In this document: one piece after another, positions 16,857-51,031 of the stretch
Layout of the letters: each line of letters starts with the position of its first letter
How positions within the stretch are numbered: position 1 is the stretch's first letter
Origin: Sedimentisphaerales bacterium
Lineage (GTDB): Bacteria > Planctomycetota > Phycisphaerae > Sedimentisphaerales > Anaerobacaceae
Direction: 5' to 3'
Length of the DNA stretch: 64,000 nt
Assembly (NCBI GenBank): GCA_963708075.1
Contig: OY970194.1
Coordinates: 1,152,001 to 1,216,000, forward strand
Notes under the pieces: generated by a model
Told to the model about the DNA's origin: nothing
What the model saw: only the letters and a program-made list of their open reading frames with translations
Databases searched by the model: none
Translations under genes and position numbers: made by a program

Positions 16857-17363
16857 ATGACTGCGAAGAGAGTATCGACGCGGTTGGCTTTTGCGTTGGT
16901 GCTTGTGGCGGCAATGGGGGCTTGGGCCATGGGCGAGACCCGGCAGGTCAACACCACGCCGGTGTGGTACCGGATCTGGACCCCCAATCTCTATGGCCTG
17001 AACACGTATCATTACCTGGGTCCGATAGCGCCGTACGCCCCCGGCTTTTTCCCGCTGGACGGCTGGTACGGCGGGTACTATCCGCCGCTGTTTGAGCCTC
17101 CGCGGTATAGTCCGCTATTGCCGGGCTCGGTTCCTGCGCCCTGGCAGTATCGGGCACCGGATTGGTATTACCGCCAGCCGTACGCACCCTATGTGTATCC
17201 GCCGCCGTTTTACGGGGGCTACTACGCACCCAATGCGCACCAGTGGTGGTATTACCGCTACTACAACCAGCCCTGGAGTGGACCAGGCTGGCGCAGCTAT
17301 CGCGGCATGCGGGATCCCCGGCCCAATCCCCAAGCCCCAACCGCAGTTCCGCGCAGCCGGTGA
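16857..17363 (+). CDS. secreted Tyr/Pro/Trp-rich low-complexity protein
   Basis: GAGGTG RBS; signal peptide ending AWA; repeated YGGYY(A/P)P and YYxQP. Confidence 0.75.
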   Translation: MTAKRVSTRLAFALVLVAAMGAWAMGETRQVNTTPVWYRIWTPNLYGLNTYHYLGPIAPYAPGFFPLDGWYGGYYPPLFEPPRYSPLLPGSVPAPWQYRAPDWYYRQPYAPYVYPPPFYGGYYAPNAHQWWYYRYYNQPWSGPGWRSYRGMRDPRPNPQAPTAVPRSR

Positions 17364-17410
17364 AGACACGCAGGGCAGGCTTCTGCGCCGCTCTCATCGA
17401 GCCCCAATAG

Positions 17411-17442
17411 AAAGGGCTGCGGACACAATTGCCCGCAGCCCC
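17411..17442 (-). terminator. terminator hairpin between convergent genes
   Basis: GGGCTGCGG (17414-22) pairs with CCGCAGCCC (17433-41); short T tract on the minus strand. Confidence 0.55.
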
Positions 17443-17469: not shown

Positions 17470-18136
17470 TTACAGCGCGTTGCGTCTGCGAAGATAACCC
17501 ACGAGAACCCATGCCAAGAGCGCCGAGCAGGATCGCCCCGGGAGCGGGGACTTGATAGATCATGTTCGGACCATCGAAGAAATCGGGAGCCGTCGGACCA
17601 TACGTCTGTGTCGGCCACGTAGGTGCCGGGTCCGAGCTCGTCGCAGTCCACACGGACTGTACGAACTGTACCCCATCACCATTGAACGTAGGTCCAGGTC
17701 CGCCAAGGTTACTATTGTGCTCGGGATTGGCGTCCGAGAAGCCGTACCCGACGATGGTGTACTGCCCGACCGGCAACGCCAGAGGACTGATCGGCTTGAA
17801 CCAGTAGTTGCTCGCCGCATCGAACCACATGCCCGCATCGCCCGCTGCAAACGTCATCGAAGCGATCACGTTTTGCTGCGCGTCGAACAGGACGGTCGTG
17901 AGCGGTGCCGCACCGGCTGCCAGGCCATCAGCTCCACTGTCGTATATGCCGAGTTCCAGGACCTGGAAACCGGAGGTAAGGACGTCGAAGGTCCAACCCA
18001 CACCGCTCCAGCCCTGGTTCCCGGTGGTCGTATTCGCCACATGCATGGTCGTAGGAACTGCGCTTGCCGACATTGGAAGAGCGGCCAGCAAGGCTGCGGC
18101 CACGACCGCCAACATCAGCTTGGTGCATCTTTTCAT
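17470..18136 (-). CDS. PEP-CTERM-like (VPAPG) surface protein; probable 1-bp insertion near 17506
   Basis: Signal peptide ending ASA; VPAPGAILLGALGMG; removing one base gives LVGYLRRRNAL* (stop 17470-17472). Confidence 0.85.
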
Positions 18137-18440
18137 ATCATCCTCCTACAACTCAAACGTCACTCCAAGAAAACGCTTCCGTGCCCCGTTCATGTATGCA
18201 TCTGCTGCCCAAGGGACACGCACTTTTCCCCATCAGGCTCATCGCGCGTCAAACCACACTTCTCCAGGCAGAAGCGTCCGACCTGCTCGGCCCGCAACTG
18301 GCGGCCTTTCTCATGCTGCCGACCGGCCGTTCCCAGACCCGGCCTATCCAGCCGCTAACAGGTATGGACACACGGAGGCTCTGCAAAATGCGCAATGGCT
18401 GATGGGGACGCTGATATACGCGCCAAGTTCTCGCAGGTCA
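18137..18440 (-). promoter_or_regulatory. conserved ~300-nt 5' leader, copy 1
   Basis: Colinear similarity with 19281-19584; lies between a sigma70 promoter and an AGGAGG RBS. Confidence 0.7.
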
Positions 18441-18446
18441 GCCCGT

Positions 18447-18475
18447 AGTATAGCCTCCCGGCCTCGACGTGTCAA
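18447..18475 (-). promoter_or_regulatory. sigma70-type promoter
   Basis: TTGACA-17 nt-TATACT on the minus strand. Confidence 0.75.
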
Positions 18476-18556
18476 CAGGAAAAACCAGTTTTTTTTGCAC
18501 TTGGGCCGGCCGCGTGACTGAATCATGTGCAGGCCCGGGAAGGGGAAATTTGGAGG

Positions 18557-18592
18557 AAAAAAAAGGCCGGCAGTCCCTGGGGACGACCGGCC
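18557..18592 (-). terminator. intrinsic terminator after the second PEP-CTERM-like gene
   Basis: GGCCGG...CCGGCC stem followed by T8 on the minus strand. Confidence 0.7.
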
Positions 18593-18638
18593 GTGAAGAT
18601 TCAAGCCTGCCAGGTACAGATGCAGTCACCTGGGCTTC

Positions 18639-19280
18639 TTACAGCGATCTTCGCCTGCGGAGCCAGCCGATCAGGCAAGTGCCTATGGCACCGAGAAGGA
18701 CAGCGCCCGGGGCCGGGATGGGAGTTCCCATTGCCAGGTTGTCGATTCCCGTGTTGATGCGCTCGCCACCCACGCTGGTCCAGTGGATTTTGGTGATCGG
18801 CTCATCGAGCACGATACCGAAGAACCACTGGCCTGCCGCACGCCCATCATAGAGCGTGACAGCAGGGGTAGGATCGCTGCCGTAGAACTCCACGACGACA
18901 TTTCCCAGGCCGTTGAGGTACGCATCATAACCGACCGCCGTATAGGAAAACGCACTCAGATCGATTGTGAAATCCTCAGGTCCGGTACCCGTCAGGATGC
19001 TGCTGGTCGTCAGCGGAACGCCGAAGTTGGTGTAGCCCGGAGAGGCCACCCAGACGTTGTTCGTTGGTGGTGTCCCTGCGTACGTGACGCCGTTACTCGT
19101 GAACGACGCCAACGCCGTGTCCTTCGGGACCACAGCCTCGAAGTCTTCGACTTGCAGGATGTTCACTGCGGCGTCGAAAGAGGCGTAGTCCATGTAAAAA
19201 GCAGGGACTGCCAAGCTTACGCTGCTCAGCGGCAAAAGGACCGCCGCCAGTGCCAGGCAAGCTGTTGTCAAACGTCCCAT
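18639..19280 (-). CDS. PEP-CTERM-like (IPAPG) surface protein
   Basis: AGGAGG RBS; signal peptide; C-terminal IPAPGAVLLGAIGTCLIGWLRRRRSL. Confidence 0.9.
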   Translation of the reverse strand: MGRLTTACLALAAVLLPLSSVSLAVPAFYMDYASFDAAVNILQVEDFEAVVPKDTALASFTSNGVTYAGTPPTNNVWVASPGYTNFGVPLTTSSILTGTGPEDFTIDLSAFSYTAVGYDAYLNGLGNVVVEFYGSDPTPAVTLYDGRAAGQWFFGIVLDEPITKIHWTSVGGERINTGIDNLAMGTPIPAPGAVLLGAIGTCLIGWLRRRRSL

Positions 19281-19584
19281 GTAATCCTCCTAAAGCTCAA
19301 TGTTCAATGTCACTCCAAGACACAGTCTCGGTATCTCCTCTATGTATCTGGCAAAGAGACACCCTGACCCCACATCCAGCCTGTCGCGCAGTAAACCAGT
19401 GCTTTCCCAGGCAGAACCGTCCGACCTGTTCGGGCCGCAAGCTGCGGCCTTTCCCCTGCTGCCGGCCGGCCGTTCCCAGACATGGCCCGTCCAGCCGCTA
19501 ACAGGTGTGGACGCATAGAGGCTCTGCACGATGCGCAATGGTTGATGTGGACGCGTGATATATGCGCCAAGTCTTCGCAGGTCA
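19281..19584 (-). promoter_or_regulatory. conserved ~300-nt 5' leader, copy 2
   Basis: Colinear similarity with 18137-18440. Confidence 0.7.
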
Positions 19585-19590
19585 GTCTAT

Positions 19591-19619
19591 AATATACCCC
19601 GGGGGCCCGGAAATGTCAA
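19591..19619 (-). promoter_or_regulatory. sigma70-type promoter
   Basis: TTGACA-17 nt-TATATT on the minus strand, at the same position relative to the leader as copy 1. Confidence 0.75.
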
Positions 19620-19687
19620 GTAAAAAGCGGACCATCTTCCCGCGAGGGCGTACGACAAGATTGTGGCAGAGCGAGGATTAGGCTCTT

Positions 19688-19777
19688 GGGTGGCAGCGTC
19701 AAGCGGCAGCTTGGCGATGGCGTTCTTGGGATGCGCCTCCACCATCGCCAAGGCCTGCGGCCTTGACGATGCCACCC
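19688..19777. repeat. GGGTGGCAGC-family palindromic repeat
   Basis: GGGTGGCAGCGTCAAG...CTTGACGATGCCACCC. Confidence 0.8.
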
Positions 19778-19831
19778 GGGTCGAGTGCCACTTTCTTGTC
19801 GTACACCCTCCCGCGAATCGTCACCTGGCCG

Positions 19832-21249
19832 TCAGTACTCCCGGTTTTTGAGAATCCCCGGCTGGGGCAGGGGGTACTTGCCGTCAGGGCCGGCGGGCAG
19901 GGGGGCGGGGGAGTCCATCGCCAGCTTGTCCACGTCGGGGGCGAACTCCTCCTCGCTGTTGAGCATCTCGTCGAATGTCACGATCTGCCCGGTATGGACG
20001 GCCCGGCGGGCCATGGCCGTGACCAGGGCGGCCTCTGTTCCTCGTTTCGTCTCGTTGAAAGGCTTGTCATTGCGAATGGCGTCGATCAGCTCATCCCACT
20101 CAAGTTGGTAGGGATTCGGCTCCGGCTGCGGGAACGACCAGGCGAGGTCCTCTTTCGCGAAGTTTTGTCCTTTATATATGCGGCATTTGCCGGGCGTGTG
20201 CATGAAGGTGGAGATCACGGCCGAGCCCCTCGTGCCGTGGGCGTAGCTGGCGAACTCCTCGTGACAGCCGGGCATGTGGCGGTTGTTGAGGAACAGCTTG
20301 GCCCCATCGGCGAACGTGTACTCGACGTCGTAGTGGTCGAAATTCTGGTCCACGGCATCGCCGCGATAGCAGCGTCCGCCCGCGCCCTGGGCCCGGACCG
20401 GCCAGGCGTCCTTCATCCAGCAGCACTCATCGACGTTGTGCGCAACCACGTCCTGGAACAGCCCGCCGCTGGCCCACAGAAAGCCCAGATAGTTGCGGAC
20501 CTGCCAGAGCAACTCGCTGATATTGCCCTGCCTGGGCCCCGCGAATCCCGCCGGGCCCTGCTGGCGGTAGGTTCGCATCATGGTGATGTCGCCGATCTGG
20601 CCGGACTTGATCCGGTCGTAAAGCTCCCAGCGGGCCTTGCAGTGCCGGCACATCAGTCCCACGCCCACCTTGAGGTTCTTCTTCACCGACTCCTCGCCCA
20701 GTTGCAGCATCTTGCGCGTGATCGGCCCGTCCACGACCACGGGCTTTTCCATGAACACATGGATGCCCTTGGCGATCGCATAGCGGAAATGCACCCAGCG
20801 GAACGCCACCGGCGTGGCGAAGATCGCGACATCGCCCGGCCGCAGGCAGTCCATCGCCTTTTGATAGGCGTCGAATCCGAGGAACCGCCGCTCCGGCGGC
20901 ACGTCGAGCTGGCTCGCCTGATACCCGCATCGACCCAAGTATCCGCCGACCCGCTCGTCCGCGGCGCGCTGGCCGCCTCGATCAGCCCGTCGTAGCTGCG
21001 TTTGATCCGGTCCTCGAACACATCCGCCATCGCGAAGAGCTTGACGGGAGCGACCCTGGTGGCCATCGCATTGGCCGCCGCCCCCGACCCTCGCCCCCCG
21101 CAGCCGACGAGCGCGACCCGGATCGTCTCATCCCCAGCCGCATACACCCGCGGCCCGACCGCCGCCAGAAACGCCGACCCCGCCGCCACCCGACCCGTGC
21201 CCTTCAAGAACTCCCGTCGTGACGTGCCCCGTGCATCGCTACCGCTCAT
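19832..21249 (-). CDS. Tat-exported Gfo/Idh/MocA oxidoreductase, frameshifted near 20930
   Basis: SRREFLK Tat motif and ALVGCGGRGSGAA in ORF 20683-21279; ATPVAFR, HVFMEKP and HNVDECCW in ORF 19832-20938. Confidence 0.9.
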
Positions 21250-21262
21250 AACAACCCCTCGT

Positions 21263-21302
21263 GATTTACGATTTACCATTTACGATTTACGATTTACCAT
21301 TT
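21263..21302. repeat. heptamer tandem repeat (G/C)ATTTAC x5-6
   Basis: gatttac gatttac catttac gatttac gatttac cattt. Confidence 0.85.
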
Positions 21303-21408
21303 GAGACCCACGCGTCACCCGTGACGCACAGCCAGATTGTATATCCCAAGTCGGCAATCTGAAATGGCAAATCCATTCACCCAATCCACCACGCCGAGCC
21401 ACACGCGG

Positions 21409-22090
21409 AAATTGGCTTTGTTTCGCACAACTGCCCATGCAGTTCACCGACAAACGGACCCGGCCGCCTGAATTGGCTTTGTTTCGCACGCCAGGCCCTC
21501 AGCGTGTAGTGCTTCGACTACTCTGATCTGGTGGATACCGGGTGGCAGCGGCAAGCGGGGTCTTCGGAGCTTGCCGATGGCGTGCAGACGCAGACACGAG
21601 CCATCGGCATGCTGGCGCTTGCCGCTGCCACCCATAATAAGCGATATTCTAAGCCTCGTTTCAGGGTGGCCGCAGTGGCAGGGTGTGCCGTGCACACCTT
21701 CTCCACGGGGAGGGAGTCCGCACTTGTCCCGGGCCCGGAAATTGGCTTTGTTTTCGCAGATACACAACGGATGACAATCTTTCATAACGCTTTTTCTGGA
21801 CAGCAGTTAGTGTTCGTCTGCCCTCCGGCCCATTGGCTTTGTTTCGCACGCCAAGCCCCGTTTGGAGTCCCGTAGGACAGGCTGTGACCGCCATTCGTCC
21901 GCCAGGCAAATTGGCTTTGTTTCGCACAATCGCTCGTTCCCTGCCGGGCGGCAGCGTCAAGCGAAGCTTGGCGATGGTCGTCCGGAGACGCCTCAGATTG
22001 GCTTTGTTTCGCATAACCATCCCTCAGCCGTCTTGTCGAATGGCTGACACCCGGCGTCCGCCACCAGGCAAATTGGCTTTGTTTCACGCG
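21409..22090. repeat. array of seven ATTGGCTTTGTTTCGC short direct repeats
   Basis: Copies start at 21411, 21472, 21741, 21832, 21910, 21997 and 22072. Confidence 0.9.
21540..21633. repeat. GGGTGGCAGC-family palindromic repeat inside the array
   Basis: Nearly identical to 27215-27308. Confidence 0.85.
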
Positions 22091-22613
22091 CCTTGACGCC
22101 CGCCTGCCGCGAGTCCTGCTTCATTGGTCATAGGAAACTCTCCGGAAATTTTTTGATTTCCGGCCCTCCGGCCTGGCTCGGTGTACCGGGTGAGATGTGG
22201 TCGTAAGACCATATATAGAGACGCTCCACGGGTCGGGATGTTGCAGGAATTTCCGCCACATGGTGAGAATACCCGCAAATGCCTGCGACACAGGGACTTA
22301 GGGCACCGGGGCGTTTGCGCCTTGCGATCTGGCCACTGTGCGTTGCCGGCCCCGTACTGTGGTGGCAAACACGGGTGGCAGCGGCAAGCGGAGTCTTCGG
22401 AGCTTGCCGATGGCGTGCAGGCACTGACAGGGACCATCGGCAAGCCGACGCCGGGGGCCGGACCGGCGCTTGCGTGGGCGTGCGGATCCGATGCAGAACA
22501 TGCTTACGCGAGCGTAAGCATGGCACCCAGCCCCTGTGATGTCATTCCGGCGCAGGGCCTGCCCTCGACCTGATCGGGGGCGGGAATCCAGACTCGCGGG
22601 ACCTTCAGAGTTC

Positions 22614-41835: not shown

Positions 41836-42084
41836 ACAGAACTCACGGTGAACATGCAGCGTATACAAAACGCTGGTTCACCGGTTTTGTTGGTGGACCA
41901 AACAAGTTCGCCAAAGATCTTTGACAAGTGAACAGTTGAGCCTTAATACGAGCAGCGAAAGTGCGTTCGTCGCAGCGGGCAACCGTTGCGGCGGTTTCCA
42001 AAACTGGATTCAGCACTTTCGGTGCAAACCAGAGAGTGTTGAGCCATTACGACGGATCCGTTTAATCGCGGGTCCGATGAATCA

Positions 42085-43621
<1,537 letters not shown>

Positions 43622-50609: not shown

Positions 50610-50916
50610 GGTTCTATCTCCTCGAAAATACGTCTGCAGGCAGGCGGCTGGGAAGGCATAAGGAAGAACCTGAGCCTATGCTCCGGTTGCGTTCTCTACT
50701 CTATGCCTACGAGGTTAGCTGTCGGGCTCAGGCAGAGCGACCTTAATCAATCACTCGATATTCGCCCCGAGATCTTGCGATCCACTCCGGGTTCCCCGTT
50801 TTCTTCCTGTCTATTTGACGAGCCGAAAGCAAAGAAGAAACTCGGCTATATGAACCATTATGATAGGGCGGAGGCTTTGTCCAGTCAAGACATTCATCAG
50901 GAATCCGCGCTGATCA

Positions 50917-51009
50917 ACAATGGCGGGGACAAAGCGACGCAAAACCGCGAGGTAGAGCCAATCGCAAAAACCCCGCCCCAGTACGGATTGCAGGCTGGCA
51001 ACTCGCCTG
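50917..51009 (+). other. isolated 93-bp 16S rRNA fragment
   Basis: Matches 43308-43400 with 6 substitutions (hand count). Confidence 0.9.
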
Positions 51010-51031
51010 GCAGAAGTGCGGAATCGTCAAT

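Follow-up and report, generated by a model that had tools for sequence, protein, structure and literature searches.

A duplicated promoter–leader cassette, with a probably folded leader, before two PEP-CTERM-like genes of a Sedimentisphaerales bacterium

Two neighboring genes of a Sedimentisphaerales bacterium (Planctomycetota; assembly GCA_963708075.1, contig OY970194.1) are each preceded by about 300 nt of similar non-coding DNA, and the question that this locus raises is what such a leader does before two genes for unrelated, putatively exported proteins. The genes, here called A and B, lie in a stretch of 64,000 nt (positions 1,152,001 to 1,216,000 of the forward strand), which we refer to as the window and in which coordinates are given unless stated otherwise. 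Comparison of the two copies indicates that promoter, leader, ribosome-binding site (RBS) and start codon form one unit that has been duplicated before two unrelated cargo domains. For the function of the leader, we favor, at a probability of roughly 0.5, a folded and passive element of one lineage, copied together with its promoter, that would stabilize the mRNA of a surface protein and tune its translation.

The promoter-to-ATG stretches of A and B are colinear, with 74.9% identity over 331 nt (E 3e-55), and no other BLAST match to the leader in the genome is better than E 0.05; the duplicated leader of about 300 nt described in the original prediction, an earlier reading of this DNA, is thereby confirmed at ~303 nt for each copy. 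The seven sequence blocks that were listed as shared are all present in both window copies, but some of them, e.g., TCTTGGAGTGAC, are missing from most of the other copies described below. Each gene has its own promoter with the proposed TTGACA-17-TATAyT pattern (11/12 consensus matches in each case), and two promoters of such strength are seen in the region, compared with 0.6 expected from shuffled sequences. The distance from the -10 box to the ATG is 310 nt at both genes, and across 12 aligned copies the -35 and -10 boxes are kept while the spacer varies. The description of the genes as divergent holds for their sequences and not for their orientation: both are on the minus strand, in tandem, with B upstream and A downstream. 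A GC stem and a U tract follow each gene, and A and B are therefore probably separate transcription units. Within the leader, every sense frame contains stops in at least 9/10 copies, antisense frames are open in one copy at most, indels break the frame, and variation by codon position is 0.115/0.164/0.147; the leader copies contain no conserved frame for a leader peptide or an attenuator based on an upstream open reading frame, very short ones not being excluded.

As had been noted from the sequence, the mature proteins lack obvious similarity, the sole notable BLASTP match between A and B being the 13-residue C-terminal sorting motif. Protein B comprises a signal-like N-terminal helix, a β-sandwich domain and a PEP-CTERM-like tail, and in its structure model (predicted local distance difference test, pLDDT, 83) the N- and C-terminal helices flank the β domain. 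Its tail has a PAP variant of the motif and scores under the cut-off of PF07589 (E 0.048; 14.2 bits against 20.7); B has 210 homologues, and several homologues of A and B carry PF07589. Foldseek relates the model of B to carbohydrate-binding-module (CBM) folds, although weakly (E ~1e-4; TM score ≤ 0.45 by query). Protein A also has a β-sandwich and a PEP-CTERM-like tail; it was modeled from an intact orthologue at metagenomic locus L028 (pLDDT 87), and this model gave no Foldseek match at E ≤ 0.001. In the assembly, gene A contains a one-base frameshift near 17506-17507, within the sorting tail; neither the L028 orthologue nor two RNA contigs have it, and it may be an assembly error. The ESM Atlas yielded unnamed clusters only, at 0.90-0.92, and the named homologues of A and B belong to Sedimentisphaerales and other Planctomycetota. 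Three PF09721 matches above the cut-off identify exosortases in the genome. Judged on such sequence features, “PEP-CTERM-like surface proteins” is a fair, if unproven, label for A and B.

BLAST, a hidden Markov model (HMM) and a covariance model agree that the genome holds two full leader copies, both in the window, and the leader is found at only these two of the 34 PEP-CTERM-like genes examined. A metagenome scan with the B protein family returned 34 loci (designated by L numbers), nine of which carry full copies, ten in all (E ≤ 3e-53); two of the ten are identical (L032 and L044), and two are 93-97% identical to those of the window itself (L028). All ten stand directly before an A- or B-type gene. 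A flanking gene is common to the window and seven of the nine carrier loci (L028 and L029 show no neighbor), and the oxidoreductase upstream of the carriers is 89-95% identical to that of the window. By these shared flanking genes and this identity, the carriers are close relatives, and the additional copies represent one and the same locus. The surface-protein regulon that had been proposed for the leader is therefore not borne out.

The leader consists of a 5′ block, a core and a 3′ module that includes the Shine-Dalgarno (SD) sequence, and the loci around the full copies differ in which parts they retain. In L035, the 5′ block and the 3′ module are kept around a shorter middle (205 nt). Two further loci of the genome, C1:448612-448730 (minus strand) and C1:2133315-2133434 (plus strand), keep only the last ~115 nt; both sit behind a duplicated open frame, which by eye we take to be a STAS anti-sigma-factor antagonist. 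The first precedes an A-type paralogue; the gene behind the second encodes a protein that shares the signal region but differs in body and C-terminal anchor. Such natural copies without a core indicate that the core can be lost. A third A-type paralogue (C1:3526538, minus strand; L214) has the same promoter type with a different leader of ~200 nt, which is unrelated to the window leader by HMM and covariance model. More distant homologues of B and A mostly have a TTGAC-type promoter with shorter, different leaders, or lie inside operons.

Outside this set of loci, searches were made in genome samples that overlap and in which many genomes are incomplete. The covariance model of the leader (R1), with which the 12 full copies score 96-163 bits (9 of these being its own training rows), gave no match in 150 genomes of the family; in 23 genomes of the genus the best match had E 0.015, and the 5 matches inspected were all within long open frames, as were all four weak matches in 150 genomes of the order and 150 of the phylum (two each). 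DNA searches found one 31-nt match in 60 relatives, unsupported by HMM, and short matches (E 6e-4 to 1e-2) in 13 of 400 genomes of the class, unsupported on follow-up. None of 6 matches from a GTDB pattern scan was HMM-supported, and 9 loci examined for A-family genes (present in 8/275 family genomes) lacked the leader. In viral contigs, two pattern scans gave 8 and 120+ matches, all at chance level, and protein scans found nothing; plasmid and phage collections contained no leader match. Across the other GTDB genomes searched, sequence comparison thus points to no credible copy of the leader.

In the leader tree, the A copy of the window groups with the B copy of the window (95/94), not with the other A-type leaders, which suggests re-duplication or gene conversion. 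A-type and B-type leaders form no separate clades, although one A clade remains compatible with an approximately unbiased (AU) test (p 0.074).

Is the leader transcribed? Fifteen metatranscriptome runs from five studies contain part of the stretch, and eight were examined as contigs, which can show neither the start nor the strand of a transcript. Contigs that span leader A and the first part of gene A, with 2-9 differences, occur in three runs from a single study. Among the contigs listed, those extending furthest upstream end at 18422 and 18432 (two studies; both from related copies), a little inside the start predicted near 18440. One contig set gave no cover at 18456-18647 and another none at 18438-18554. 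Runs X4, X6, X8 and X11 gave no leader cover, but gaps in contig sets prove nothing. From these contigs there is a weak indication that transcription starts at the predicted promoter and continues through the leader into the gene.

A consensus fold was obtained with RNAalifold from ten copies, with P3 and a 3-pair tip of P7 added by hand. At its 5′ end is a small hairpin. P1/P2 form a long stem that closes the core, within which lie the nested P4/P5, a three-way junction with P6/P7 and P8, and P9, which is small; hairpin P10 stands apart, ahead of the ribosome site. Of 696 cells, 92.0% are paired, and 14/70 pairs show changes on both sides, with 0/500 shuffles as high; this control ignores relatedness, and the structure was derived from the same sequences. 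Within the core, double changes occur in P1, P2, P3, P4, P7 and P8. Stricter nulls used nine sequences (the near-copy L028B being dropped) and relabeling, in which the row-sharing pattern of letters is kept and the minority letters are redrawn. The consensus energy of -62.9 is lower than that of a transition-matched null (-53.4 ± 4.5; 5/300 as low) and of column shuffles (-36.6; 0/100). A first relabeling null (0/150) is superseded because it gave transitions too small a share (0.49 vs 0.56). Variability is lower in paired (0.108) than in unpaired columns (0.185), a comparison that is partly circular, and 12/14 changes among RNA-contig variants at paired columns keep the pair, only 2 of these letters being new to the alignment.

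The most convincing part of the predicted fold is the P10 region. The two stems near the RBS that had been reported to differ in sequence were both found at the positions given for them, and both are predicted to fold. Across copies, the sequence of P10 varies while 92.5% of its cells are paired, with changes on both sides in 4/8 pairs; the region has a mean z of -1.3 (14 copies) compared with -0.2 for 27 other PEP-CTERM-like genes, and P10 is missing from the minimum-energy fold in 3/14 copies. A pairing of 5′ CCUG with CAGG of the core, seen by eye, was dropped, since the 5′ block persists in L035, where the CAGG partner is missing. In L036, P8 gives way to an alternative perfect 8-bp hairpin (about L036:2065-2090), also seen by eye, that would take the 3′ strand of P5. 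Taken together, the comparative data lend moderate support to a selected RNA fold in the leader.

Several results weigh against the reading of a folded stabilizer. The core diverges nearly as fast as synonymous sites (identity 0.78 vs 0.72-0.77). It has an identity of 0.78 among six B-type copies, compared with 0.72 at four-fold sites of the same genes, and four-fold identity of the oxidoreductase in four loci (0.74-0.79) is near the value for the core; corrected divergence is 0.26 for the core, and 0.36 (B genes) and 0.30 (oxidoreductase) at four-fold sites. By these estimates the leader evolves only a little more slowly than synonymous sites (0.7-0.9 of their rate), unlike a typical aptamer. 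When the null is slightly over-corrected, 14/250 replicates have a consensus energy as low as the observed one, and none of the other measures (number of pairs, fraction paired, additional pair types, double changes, kept fraction) is significant. For structures predicted from single sequences on the sense strand and assessed by tree simulation, the kept fraction beats the null for one of five references (L032, 0/300); the nine full cores have single-sequence z-scores of -1.7 to +0.4 only; a strand test is mixed, with more G-U than A.C variants in most strand-neutral pair sets (21:10 and 16:7) but not in every one (13:16); and P1 has a probability of at most 0.16 in 3/10 single-sequence folds. 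Finally, the RNA contigs, which cover the leader in 4/8 runs, cannot show half-life, start site or expression level. Hence the proposed selection on an RNA structure stands in part: variation mostly fits one nested fold, but strong selection is unsupported, with core divergence near that of four-fold sites.

The alternative that survives best is that the core is largely an inherited passenger of a recent cassette duplication; the parts that matter would be limited to the promoter, the 5′ block and the 3′ module (P10 and the SD sequence), and folding of the GC-rich core would be incidental. Near-synonymous divergence of the core, carriers that are close relatives, most covariation measures within the null and core z-scores near zero all suit a passenger, as do the absence of the core at two paralogous loci of the genome, its shorter replacement in L035 and the short leaders of more distant homologues. 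The consensus energy test (5/300), the double changes in six helices and the lower variability of paired columns do not, and core indels are few (212-218 aligned positions per pair in 222 columns). We regard this account as possible, although doubtful.

A second alternative is that the leader is a responsive switch, in which the junction binds a metabolite, or CsrA binds at loops bearing GGA, and a pyrimidine tract pairs either with the SD sequence or with the 3′ strand of P1. The size and branching of the leader resemble an aptamer plus expression platform, with invariant unpaired bases in the junction and loops, and one CsrA is encoded in the genome. Pairing of the tract with the SD sequence forms a 5-bp consensus helix (-0.8 kcal/mol) that is largely kept in 11/12 copies; for the two core-less paralogues, folding predicts that the tract pairs with the 3′ strand of P1, and L036 and copy A show this predicted pairing, too, when the stretch is folded alone. 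There is also a precedent, in that c-di-GMP riboswitches precede PEP-CTERM genes in Methylophaga (PMC12530212). Against a switch, the terminator scan found none within the leader, and the predicted folds do not couple P1 to the SD sequence: forcing or blocking P1 shifts SD opening by ~1 kcal/mol or less in 10/10 copies. Removal of the core shifts SD-to-start opening by at most 1 kcal/mol in 8/10 copies, and the opening energies themselves (2.7-9.4 kcal/mol) do not stand out from those of 24 other PEP-CTERM-like genes (median 6.3). Pairing of the tract with codons 1-9 is striking in five B-type copies, but not general, and beats synonymous recoding (fraction < 0.05) in only 1/13 copies. Conservation is weak, the range is narrow, and natural copies lack the core. 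With no terminator and no P1–SD coupling, a switch is not predicted, and the models favor a passive structure; we consider a ligand- or protein-responsive switch improbable.

The relation to known RNAs points the same way. The Rfam scan, on which the original prediction made its novelty depend, matched no known family to either leader: Rfam 15 has no match at the gathering threshold in the region, and at E ≤ 10 there is one chance-level eukaryotic long non-coding RNA (lncRNA) model per leader (13-15 bits); at eight homologous loci the same threshold gave six weak matches, none on the leader. The c-di-GMP-I riboswitch (RF01051) has 0 matches at E ≤ 10 in the genome, with 150/515 candidates scored. 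Likenesses to cobalamin, ZTP, TPP, hammerhead, 6S, SRP and RNase P RNAs have no Rfam support. The riboswitch of the original prediction is thus unlikely. A specific version is equally unlikely: the core would serve as the aptamer for a switch class not yet described, which evolved within one Sedimentisphaerales-like lineage and senses a signal for surface or biofilm remodeling, and movement of the pyrimidine tract between the 3′ strand of P1 and the SD sequence would gate translation.

A third alternative assigns the function to DNA: the ACYTG-N5-ACYTG repeat just past the start site would be the operator of a repressor, with the rest of the leader as a spacer. This 5′ block is the most conserved 16-column window (13/16 invariant; 791/20000 shuffles as high) and is unpaired in the model, its halves have a 10-bp spacing, and it is kept in L035 despite the different core. 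However, among 469 promoter-like sites in the genome the block occurs only at the two leaders and at one site with 2 mismatches, no candidate regulator was identified, and an operator leaves the pair-preserving variation in the other 280 nt unexplained, which makes this account very unlikely. That the leader is a decayed miniature mobile element, with P1/P2 as imperfect terminal inverted repeats of ~22 nt, is barely credible: inverted arms do bound the core, which is missing from the shorter leaders of relatives, but just two full copies occur in 7.5 Mb, compared with 301 BLAST pieces for a neighboring repeat, all copies stand at the same position behind a promoter, and there is no plasmid or phage match.

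We therefore return to the leader as a folded, passive stabilizer and translation tuner. Beyond the duplication of the cassette, transcription would begin just past the -10 box and run through the leader into the gene, and the transcript is predicted to form the 5′ hairpin, the nested core closed by P1/P2, and the variable P10. By analogy, these structures would slow 5′-initiated decay and hold upstream RNA off the initiation region, while the weak anti-SD helix would damp initiation. The core would be a recent, dispensable elaboration of one lineage, in contrast to relatives in which the same promoter type is followed by leaders of 60-200 nt.

The analogy is with the S-layer slp mRNAs of Lactobacillus acidophilus and L. 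crispatus, in which long folded 5′ untranslated regions (UTRs) stabilize the transcript and affect expression, with half-lives of 14-15 min and support of translation (PMC3666127; PMC10221546). The present locus resembles these in having a strong promoter, a long leader (310 nt) that is untranslated and probably folded, and a gene for a predicted exported surface protein. It differs in phylum and sorting system, and in that the leader is duplicated before two unrelated cargoes. The analogy is a functional one, and the stabilizing role is inferred from it.

For PEP-CTERM genes themselves, the report by Haft et al. describes an upstream element in Proteobacteria composed of a sigma-54 site and a site for the activator PrsR, gives long upstream regions without a known control element for PEP-CTERM genes outside Proteobacteria, and expects further motifs there (PMC1569441). 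Single-gene PEP-CTERM units with long non-coding upstream regions are common to both systems; the proteobacterial element, however, is DNA upstream of a sigma-54 promoter at a mean of 71 nt from the start codon (PMC1569441), whereas at this locus the promoter is of the sigma-70 type, stands 310 nt before the start codon and is followed, not preceded, by the conserved sequence. The c-di-GMP riboswitches of Methylophaga nitratireducenticrescens are likewise structured leaders repeated before neighboring PEP-CTERM genes (PMC12530212). The present leader, unlike these, lacks an RF01051 match, is ~3x longer than the 87-position model and is found in one lineage only. The Rhodopirellula-1 motif is a candidate cis-regulatory RNA of Planctomycetes with no Rfam number in the table of the source; the supplementary rows compared with the leader measure 87-112 nt, their conserved ends differ, and by eye they bear no resemblance to it (PMC2864571). 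A literature search for PEP-CTERM with an RNA motif, for highly expressed untranslated leaders, or for Sedimentisphaerales found no description, most subscription papers being outside the search. The sequence family of the leader appears undescribed, while the kind of element is known. The features of the locus are listed in Table 1.

Table 1. Positions in the window of the two cassettes, their predicted parts and the genes that follow them.
Feature	Position	Strand	Remarks and basis
Sigma-70-type promoter, gene B, TTGACA-17-TATATT	19591..19619	-	Start predicted near 19584; promoter scan
Leader copy B, ~303 nt, non-coding	19281..19584	-	Alignment, BLAST; no frame open in all copies
5′ block, copy B, direct repeat ACYTG-N5-ACYTG	19568..19582	-	Unpaired in model; candidate operator or protein-binding site
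Core domain, copy B	19369..19551	-	Predicted nested helices P1-P9, three-way junction P5/P6/P8
RBS-proximal hairpin P10, copy B	19330..19363	-	Pairing kept while sequence varies
Pyrimidine tract (19317-19322) and SD AGGAGG (19286-19291), copy B	19286..19322	-	Weak predicted anti-SD helix
Gene B, 213 aa	18639..19280	-	
Probable intrinsic terminator after gene B	18557..18592	-	GC stem and U tract; by eye, scanner did not list
Sigma-70-type promoter, gene A, TTGACA-17-TATACT	18447..18475	-	Start predicted near 18440; promoter scan
Leader copy A, ~303 nt	18137..18440	-	Alignment; RNA contigs span leader and coding region
5′ block, copy A	18424..18438	-	
Core, copy A	18227..18408	-	
Hairpin P10, copy A	18180..18220	-	
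Pyrimidine tract, copy A	18167..18173	-	
SD, copy A	18142..18147	-	
Gene A, ~221 aa	17470..18136	-	Frameshift in assembly
Probable intrinsic terminator after gene A	17410..17441	-	By eye, scanner did not list

Upstream of the cassettes, between promoter B and an oxidoreductase gene, lies a strongly palindromic repeat of ~165 nt (19646-19810). Of its 301 BLAST pieces in the genome, 22 are at least 120 nt long; a similar palindromic repeat occupies the same site in L038, and none is present there in L030, L031, L032 and L036. It is an element similar to a miniature inverted-repeat transposable element (MITE) or a repetitive extragenic palindromic (REP) sequence, with empty sites in relatives. 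The oxidoreductase gene (Gfo/Idh/MocA-type; 19832-21279, minus strand) is apparently split into two overlapping frames near 20940-20990; taken with the frameshift of gene A, this split points to the assembly containing indel errors. On the other side of the cassettes, a 168-aa open reading frame (ORF; 16857-17363, plus strand) has an N-terminal hydrophobic segment and is rich in Tyr, Pro and Trp; it is kept at the locus in L032, L034 and L038 and has no Pfam or NCBIfam match.

Elsewhere in the window, a c-di-AMP riboswitch (RF00379; 68.6 bits; 50689-50857, minus strand) lies upstream of small membrane-protein genes, which by eye are presumably the start of a kdp potassium-uptake operon. Adjoining this riboswitch upstream is an isolated 98-nt piece of 16S rRNA (50919-51016, plus strand; model positions 1229-1325; 74.5 bits) that is distinct from a complete gene, the complete 16S gene lying at 42084-43618. 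At ~21400-22450, ORF translations repeat similar short motifs on both strands, which suggests a non-coding repeat array.

What the leader means for this family depends on which account of it holds. If it were ligand-responsive, it would represent a new switch class; if it provides mRNA stabilization only, it would add one local case to a known principle and could perhaps be of use as an expression part for Planctomycetota. The locus also offers a natural series of short leaders, a 205-nt variant, the form of 290-305 nt and derivatives with the 3′ module only, for studies of the gain and loss of structured UTRs. For the PEP-CTERM genes of this lineage, it shows what fills one long upstream region: a promoter and a long, probably folded leader that travel as a cassette.

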